This document shows, piece after piece, positions 23,897 to 24,262 of a DNA stretch of 64,000 nt. The notes below the pieces were generated by a model, which made no database searches, was not told the origin of the DNA, and was given only the letters and a program-made list of their open reading frames with translations. Where the stretch lies: NCBI GenBank assembly GCA_017743535.1, contig JAGHYT010000002.1, forward strand, positions 22,736 through 86,735, written 5' to 3'. The first letter of the stretch is position 1. Each line of letters starts with the position of its first letter. Position numbers and translations under genes: made by a program. Source of the DNA: Chloroflexus sp. (GTDB lineage Bacteria > Chloroflexota > Chloroflexia > Chloroflexales > Chloroflexaceae).

Positions 23897-24064
23897 CTAC
23901 TCGCCCCAATCCTCTTCGACCTCAGGCGCCAGGACAAGGGTCGGTGGATCGAGACTCACAACTTCCAGTTCGGCGCCGCAATCAGGACAGGCAATGATTT
24001 CGTTGGTGAGCGTACCATCGGGTAGAGCAATCTGGGCGCCACATTCCGGGCATTCGGCATGCAT
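23897..24064 (-). CDS. lysW: Amino-group carrier protein LysW (copy 2)
   Basis: MHAECPECG...[10 protein letters not shown]...EVEEDWGE; 55 aa; upstream RBS AAAGGAG. Confidence 0.95.
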
Positions 24065-24094
24065 AGGGGTTGCTCCTTTCAATTCTCTATGTGC

Positions 24095-24262
24095 TTACTC
24101 ACCCCAATCCTCTTCGACCTCAGGCGCCAGGGCAAGGGTCGGTGGACTGAGACTGATAACCTCTAGCTCAGCACCACAATCAGGGCAGGCAATGATCTCG
24201 CTCTCAAGGGTATTGGCCGGCAGAGTGATGAGTGCGACACATTCAGGGCATTCGGCATGCAT
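24095..24262 (-). CDS. lysW: Amino-group carrier protein LysW (copy 1; absent from ORF track)
   Basis: Hand translation: [65 protein letters not shown]. Confidence 0.93.

Follow-up and report, generated by a model that had tools for sequence, protein, structure and literature searches.

Tandem lysW genes in the aminoadipate lysine operon of Chloroflexus, probably kept as extra carrier supply

The gene for the amino-group carrier LysW occurs twice in tandem on the minus strand of the window (the whole stretch of 64,000 nucleotides of Chloroflexus sp. DNA that was analysed), within the leading part of a lysine operon of the alpha-aminoadipate (AAA) type, with the gene order hcs-hacA-hacB-hicdh-lysWa-lysWb-lysX-lysY. 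Both proteins are ordinary members of the LysW family, and in that respect the finding is a modest one. The duplication extends across the genus, and its best explanation, to which we give a probability of roughly 0.6, is that it has been kept as extra carrier supply, with intermittent gene conversion between the copies. The features on which the analysis draws are the following.

Within 28376..28482, minus strand: candidate operon promoter, TTGACA-17-TATATT with TG (11/12 matches)
28376..28444, minus strand: putative 22-aa leader ORF, MRNVTFSAKQNKHAKKPDERSG, with four Lys codons, as read from the sequence
27065..28192, minus strand: homocitrate synthase, with which the operon opens (TIGR02146, 419.2 bits; cut-off 413.55)
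25793..27043, minus strand: homoaconitase large subunit (TIGR01343, 509.6 bits; cut-off 385.7)
25272..25775, minus strand: homoaconitase small subunit (NF010629, 260.6 bits; cut-off 229)
24277..25275, minus strand: homoisocitrate dehydrogenase-type gene, adjoining lysW-a on its upstream side (TIGR02088, 377.2 bits; cut-off 409.8)
24095..24262, minus strand: lysW-a, upstream carrier copy, 55 aa, Val9 (TIGR01206, 68.5 bits)
24065..24094, minus strand: spacer of 30 nt between the lysW copies, holding the AAAGGAG site of lysW-b
23897..24064, minus strand: lysW-b, downstream carrier copy, 55 aa, Gly9 (TIGR01206, 79.0 bits)
22986..23837, minus strand: lysX, the ligase adjoining the carriers (TIGR02144, 362.5 bits)
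21757..22791, minus strand: lysY, ArgC-family reductase of the lysine operon (TIGR01850, 369.1 bits)

Counted from ATG, both lysW ORFs are 55 aa long, and the ATG of each is preceded by GAAAGGAG, with its AAAGGAG Shine-Dalgarno-type site. Each protein has four Cys, in a CPEC...CPDC arrangement, and ends in EVEEDWGE. The four Cys and this tail are as the original prediction had described, and the differing strings that it gave for the N-terminal halves are correct as well. It had also remarked that the upstream copy is missing from the ORF track. This fits a 60-aa threshold, under which, we infer, a frame of 55 aa was dropped, while lysW-b was stretched by the ORF lister to a TTG at 24082 and reached 61 aa. 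The two proteins are identical at 45 of 55 residues (82%, E 2e-31) and their genes at 134 of 168 coding bases, stop included; the carrier tail, residues 45-55, is the same in both. When the whole genome (98.5% complete) was searched with TIGR01206 (lysW), whose curated cut-off is 53.2 bits, lysW-a scored 66.8 and lysW-b 77.3 bits, and these were the only two matches above the cut-off. A third LysW-like match, on contig C93, lies inside a 157-aa frame and was rejected as a LysW at 20.5 bits, far under the cut-off. LysW chains in the PDB are also matched, including 5k2m_E from Thermococcus (6.1e-12), 3wwl_A from Thermus (3.9e-11) and 3vpb_E. In an alignment of 13 LysW sequences of the order, both window copies included, the pair retains 21/21 invariant columns, among them the four Cys and EEDWGE, and the zinc-ribbon knuckle residues C5, C8, C26 and C29 are invariant in 13/13. 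The AlphaFold model of the upstream copy (mean pLDDT 89.1) has a five-stranded ribbon over residues 2-45, and its mean confidence goes down to 63 over residues 51-55, so that the last five residues can be read as a flexible tail. The terminal Glu of the EDWGE motif is given as the attachment site in the accessible text of PMC3402447. Judged by family membership, both short ORFs are real genes of the LysW amino-group carrier family. Public records of C. aurantiacus and C. aggregans already give close relatives of both proteins the name 'lysine biosynthesis protein LysW'. We found no description of a duplicated LysW in the literature searched, in which coverage of subscription journals and of structural papers on LysW complexes was poor.

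The neighbouring genes are those of an AAA lysine operon. The gene adjoining lysW-a falls below the TIGR02088 cut-off and is placed in the isopropylmalate/homoisocitrate dehydrogenase family from its score and its context. On the other side of the pair, the mechanical lysX ORF begins at a TTG at 23909, inside the final codons of lysW-b; the likely start of lysX is the ATG at 23837, which has AAGGGAG upstream and aligns to residue 1-2 of solved LysX chains. From the lysW stop to the lysX start there are 59 nt here, against only about 12 nt in most other species of the genus. Not all genes of the AAA pathway lie in the operon: lysZ (contig C129) and lysK (C207) are single genes located away from it. 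DapB and DapF were not found in the same genome, nor in the Thermus and Deinococcus controls; because they are missing from the matches in a genome that is 98.5% complete, AAA is probably its only lysine route. The genome also has an orphan LysA-like gene (a diaminopimelate decarboxylase match at C211:4584-5825, 418.5 bits, above cut-off), and so do the Thermus and Deinococcus controls.

Upstream of the operon, a promoter-like site and a leader ORF lie about 180-290 nt from the homocitrate synthase gene, the ORF within about 10 nt of the site. Both were seen at the same place in each of the three further Chloroflexus genomes that were inspected (G007, G010 and G013), in which the Lys positions of the ORF are retained and its C-terminal AKKPDERSG is identical. 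A leader peptide belongs to the Thermus lysine cluster, and by analogy the 22-aa ORF may encode a lysine-sensing leader peptide. An Rfam search of 21000-29400 on both strands gave 0 matches at E up to 0.1, and no riboswitch or leader family was found there.

Part of the stretch is present in 24 metatranscriptome runs from hot springs and mats, and four runs were compared with the window at 97% likeness. Contigs of three of the four (X1, X2 and X4) cover both lysW copies at 97% or better. In each of these runs one record bridges the 30-nt spacer: in X1 and X2 it spans 23975-24131 and matches throughout (0 mismatches), and in X4 it spans 23975-24152 with 1 mismatch. X1 and X2 also have a record, 24102-24278, that crosses from lysW-a into the gene before it. 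In run X6 the downstream lysW copy is the only one covered, and absent cover carries no meaning. Contigs from RNA libraries speak for presence, not for amounts or for a single transcript, and DNA carry-over is possible.

Tandem lysW is a trait of the genus Chloroflexus, wider than a single strain and narrower than the phylum. In a set of 41 genomes from the order to which the genus belongs, two or more copies in tandem occur in 16/16 genomes of the genus, so the strain-specific duplication for which the original prediction had allowed is not what is found. All 33 copies in this set are intact, each with a Shine-Dalgarno site, and their spacers measure 22-83 nt. Of nine genomes from other genera of the same family, 7 have one copy above cut-off and 2 have none (these two are 88% and 81% complete), and the 16 genomes from the other three families of the order have at most one LysW each. 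Weak second matches in those families (29-42 bits) were rejected as LysW: they lie on other contigs, cover the profile from 3/4 to 48/49 and have no tail. An even sample of 401 genomes from the phylum gave LysW in 145 at E up to 1e-8. Two or three LysW were present in 13/13 members of the genus and one match in 131 of the 132 others, the exception being G025, whose second match is one of 39 bits on another contig. The single-copy rows G201, G292 and G360 are unpublished genomes, and the claim is independent of them. A survey of named species covered 79 loci, taken from the best 80 of at least 586 matches. Among these best loci the pair occurs in 5/79 (four Chloroflexus sp. and one Chloroflexota bacterium) and exactly one LysW within 1.5 kb in 74/79; the single-LysW loci among the matches listed include Oscillochloris, Chloroploca, Viridilinea, Roseiflexus, Herpetosiphon, Anaerolineae and Phycisphaerales. 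In a second phylum (centred on G415, Phycisphaerales), LysW was found in 16 of 151 genomes, always as one copy (16/16).

The pair is also old. In two trees, the copies of the genus all fall into a single clade, apart from five single-copy relatives of the family (support 98/97 and 95/94), and inside sets of related species the upstream and downstream copies group as orthologues; in G003/G007/G008, for instance, the support is 97/99 for the upstream and 100/99 for the downstream group. A constraint to a single clade was not rejected for the 11 upstream copies (AU p 0.124) or for the downstream copies (p 0.175). On the most economical reading, the duplication predates the divergence of the sampled Chloroflexus species; it has been retained in all of them. 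In 11/16 species, lysW-a and lysW-b differ by dS 0.68-1.59 and dN 0.05-0.125, with dN/dS of 0.04-0.16, rates that mark both copies as old and under purifying selection. In 11/11 divergent pairs pN is lower than pS in both halves of the gene, and positive selection left no sign. The original prediction had looked to conservation and dN/dS of both copies across Chloroflexota: within the genus the pair is conserved and under purifying selection (0.04-0.16), and it is not a trait of the phylum, where 131/132 of the other LysW-bearing genomes sampled are single-copy. In 9/11 diverged pairs, a smaller share of the synonymous sites has changed in the 3' half of the gene than in its 5' half, which suggests that conversion, or constraint on the nucleotides, is stronger on the arm-encoding part.

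Five species have much closer copies (dS 0.11-0.32). In G006, G014 and G015 the coding parts are identical at 159-164 of 168 bases and the 20-nt flanks at just 4-7 of 20. Because the coding parts are nearly identical and the flanks have diverged, these are cases of gene conversion of the coding part and not of fresh duplication. The two LysW proteins of G014 are identical (55/55) and those of G015 differ at 2/55 residues. In the trees, the copies of G011 cluster by genome (support 99/99), as do those of G009 (97/98). Three lysW stand in a row in G009 (locus L034, G009:C141:6462-7006). Its second and third copies agree at 165/168 bases and their leaders at 20/20, and since the leader is identical throughout, the third copy is a recent amplification of one 190-bp unit.

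Where the copies have diverged, the replacement differences are mostly in codons 1-27 (pN 0.10-0.17 versus 0-0.07 in codons 28-55). On the modelled ribbon, the differing positions are the residue after the first knuckle (9) and the first inner strand with the loop that follows it (11-21). The upstream copy has His2, Val9, Glu20 and Ser21, with Asn or Ser at 17, in 11/11 diverged species; in the same species the downstream copy has Gly or Ala at 9 (11/11), Gly17 (10/11) and Asn21 (10/11). In eleven single-copy relatives, position 9 is Gly, Ala, Ser or Glu, position 17 is Asp or Gly, and position 21 is Ser or Gly. Since these relatives carry other residues there, Val9 and Asn/Ser17 are read as derived states of the upstream type and Asn21 as a derived state of the downstream type. 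Constraint is tighter on the upstream lineage, whose mean pairwise dN is 0.026, than on the downstream one, with 0.067. A Val9 copy is found in 14/16 species, including the partly homogenised pairs of G006, G009 and G011, and is absent from G014 and G015; in G011 and G009 it sits downstream.

Several explanations for two carriers can be weighed against this record. One, raised in the original prediction, is that the paralogues split lysine from arginine/ornithine flux, one copy carrying aminoadipate and the other glutamate. The logic of such a pathway exists in archaea, and the accessible text of PMC12998189 reports trace glutamate activity for Thermus LysX and acceptance of LysW-Glu by Thermus LysZ and LysY. 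However, the gene content of this genome argues against a split. The claim that both carriers are served by one LysX agrees with a search of the whole genome, in which only one of six RimK-family matches lay above cut-off, namely the lysX next door, and ArgX was not found. The window LysX matches 3vpd at E 2e-95, aligns to Thermus LysX (3vpd/1uc8) without gaps over residues 105-207, and carries Phe, Ile, Thr and Asn-Ser at the sites that correspond to 182, 192, 203 and 258/259. According to Table 1 in the accessible part of PMC12998189, F-I-T-NS is the signature of LysX, I-Y-V-GF that of ArgX and Y-I-T-NA that of the bifunctional ligase, which makes the window ligase one of LysX type, matching neither of the others. 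LysZ reaches 461.7 bits with NF010659, the model for [LysW]-aminoadipate kinase, against 207.0 (NF010662) and 160.7 (NF010660) with bifunctional ones, a preference among models and not an enzymatic one, and the single LysK gene reaches 486.5 bits with NF003367, the model for [LysW]-lysine hydrolase. ArgB (C172) and an intact 342-aa ArgC (C72), separate from lysY, are present as genes of their own, together with several ArgD/LysJ-type transaminases. ArgJ occurs in two copies, both above cut-off (C62:80248-81441 and C106:2927-4090; 456.9 and 337.5 bits). On this gene content, arginine has an acetyl route to itself, and there is no sign of glutamate loading. The arm that would enter the active site (residues 45-55) is also the same in both copies, and one species has identical copies. 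Each sequence test that was possible contradicts the lysine/arginine split, which we consider very improbable.

The two types could instead be isoforms specialised inside the lysine pathway, Val9 and Gly/Ala9 carriers differing in affinity for one or more of the five partner enzymes, a split that the original prediction had also named, or in ribbon stability or metal binding according to growth condition. The type-specific residues are fixed across 11/16 species, the constraint on the two lineages is asymmetric, and the differences cluster in the 5' half, at residues 9-21 of the zinc-ribbon model, which take in the knuckle, the first strand and the loop; the Val9 copy is retained in 14/16 species, and one old origin for each type is compatible with the AU tests (p 0.124 and 0.175). 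However, neither the identical proteins of G014 nor the pair of G015, with its 2/55 differences, includes Val9, and the distinction is therefore dispensable. G009 has amplified the Val9 type, G011 has the order reversed, the 11/11 divergent pairs are without sign of positive selection, and those partner enzymes that could be distinguished in the genome (LysX, LysZ, LysY and LysK) are each encoded by a single gene. Specialisation of this kind is a tentative proposal that we think probably wrong. Its fuller form, a pathway of two carriers and one ligase in which a constrained Val9 isoform and a faster-evolving Gly/Ala9 isoform have coexisted since before the genus radiated, differing in docking to the five enzymes or in ribbon stability, is a little more doubtful still. 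Neutral redundancy would make the second copy a harmless leftover, intact only through conversion from the copy that is needed. Gene conversion is evident in several species, and single-copy relatives thrive with one gene; yet loss or breakage was seen in none of the 16 species, all 33 copies keeping their frames and Shine-Dalgarno sites. In the 11 species without recent conversion, dS of 0.7-1.6 is combined with dN/dS of 0.04-0.16, and purifying selection has therefore acted on each copy separately. Redundancy alone is thus an unlikely account of the pair.

The reading that we prefer is that the duplication has been kept as extra carrier supply. That a second gene may simply raise carrier dosage was among the options of the original prediction, and it is the best supported of them: three species have homogenised the coding part alone, one of these to the point of identical proteins, and a different species has gained a third copy. 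Under the supply reading, both genes would encode working LysW carriers of the AAA lysine pathway, expressed from one operon. The single AAA-specific LysX would attach aminoadipate to either copy, at the gamma-carboxyl of its C-terminal Glu55, presumably loading both equally, and the loaded carrier would pass to LysZ, LysY, LysJ and LysK, each predicted to be encoded by a single gene, in some cases away from the operon. LysW acts stoichiometrically, every lysine under construction occupying one LysW through five enzyme steps. Because one LysW is tied up in this way for every lysine, the main benefit of the duplication would be a higher carrier-to-enzyme ratio from one transcript. Gene conversion would keep the copies partly alike, and the remaining differences, in the first zinc-ribbon hairpin, would be tolerated or only mildly functional. 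Some observations run against supply. In 11/16 species distinct copies with type-specific residues have been kept long-term, the greater constraint on the upstream lineage is not predicted by pure dosage, a Val9 copy persists in 14/16 species even where pairs are partly homogenised, and relatives that run this pathway on a single lysW gene do without a second.

Several known LysW systems can be set beside the Chloroflexus operon. Thermus has a single LysW, whereas the carrier gene stands twice in tandem in Chloroflexus and three times in one species. The LysW-LysX system of Thermus thermophilus (3wwl; 3vpd, 1uc8) is otherwise similar: both have a zinc-ribbon carrier of 54-55 aa ending in EDWGE and a LysX with the F-I-T-NS signature, DapB and DapF were not found here or in the Thermus control, and a separate canonical arginine pathway is present here as it is there (accessible text of PMC12998189). 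The Sulfolobus carrier (3vpb) belongs to the same family; one LysW is shared there by LysX and ArgX, in contrast to the two carriers and one ligase found here, and an ArgX-type ligase was not found in the Chloroflexus genome. In Thermococcus kodakarensis (5k2m) the carrier is closely related and there is again a single ligase. However, that ligase is a bifunctional LysX/ArgX, whereas the Chloroflexus enzyme has a LysX-type signature and not Y-I-T-NA, and ArgJ, ArgB and ArgC are present in its genome. The haloarchaeal ArgW/ArgX of Natrinema likewise pairs an EDWGE-tailed carrier with an adjacent RimK-type ligase; in the accessible text of PMC3402447 that carrier serves arginine in an organism with the DAP pathway, whereas the carriers described here lie in an AAA lysine operon.

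For annotation, the point is settled: the two short ORFs are genuine, and neither is to be read as an arginine-pathway carrier. The wider interest of the pair lies in the stoichiometric role of LysW, which makes the way in which cells set the carrier-to-enzyme ratio a real and little-studied question. If the two-isoform reading were true, carrier identity would tune flux or channelling in an amino-group-carrier pathway. The genus offers a natural series of identical, diverged and tripled copies, which can serve as a comparative test of whether carrier supply limits flux.
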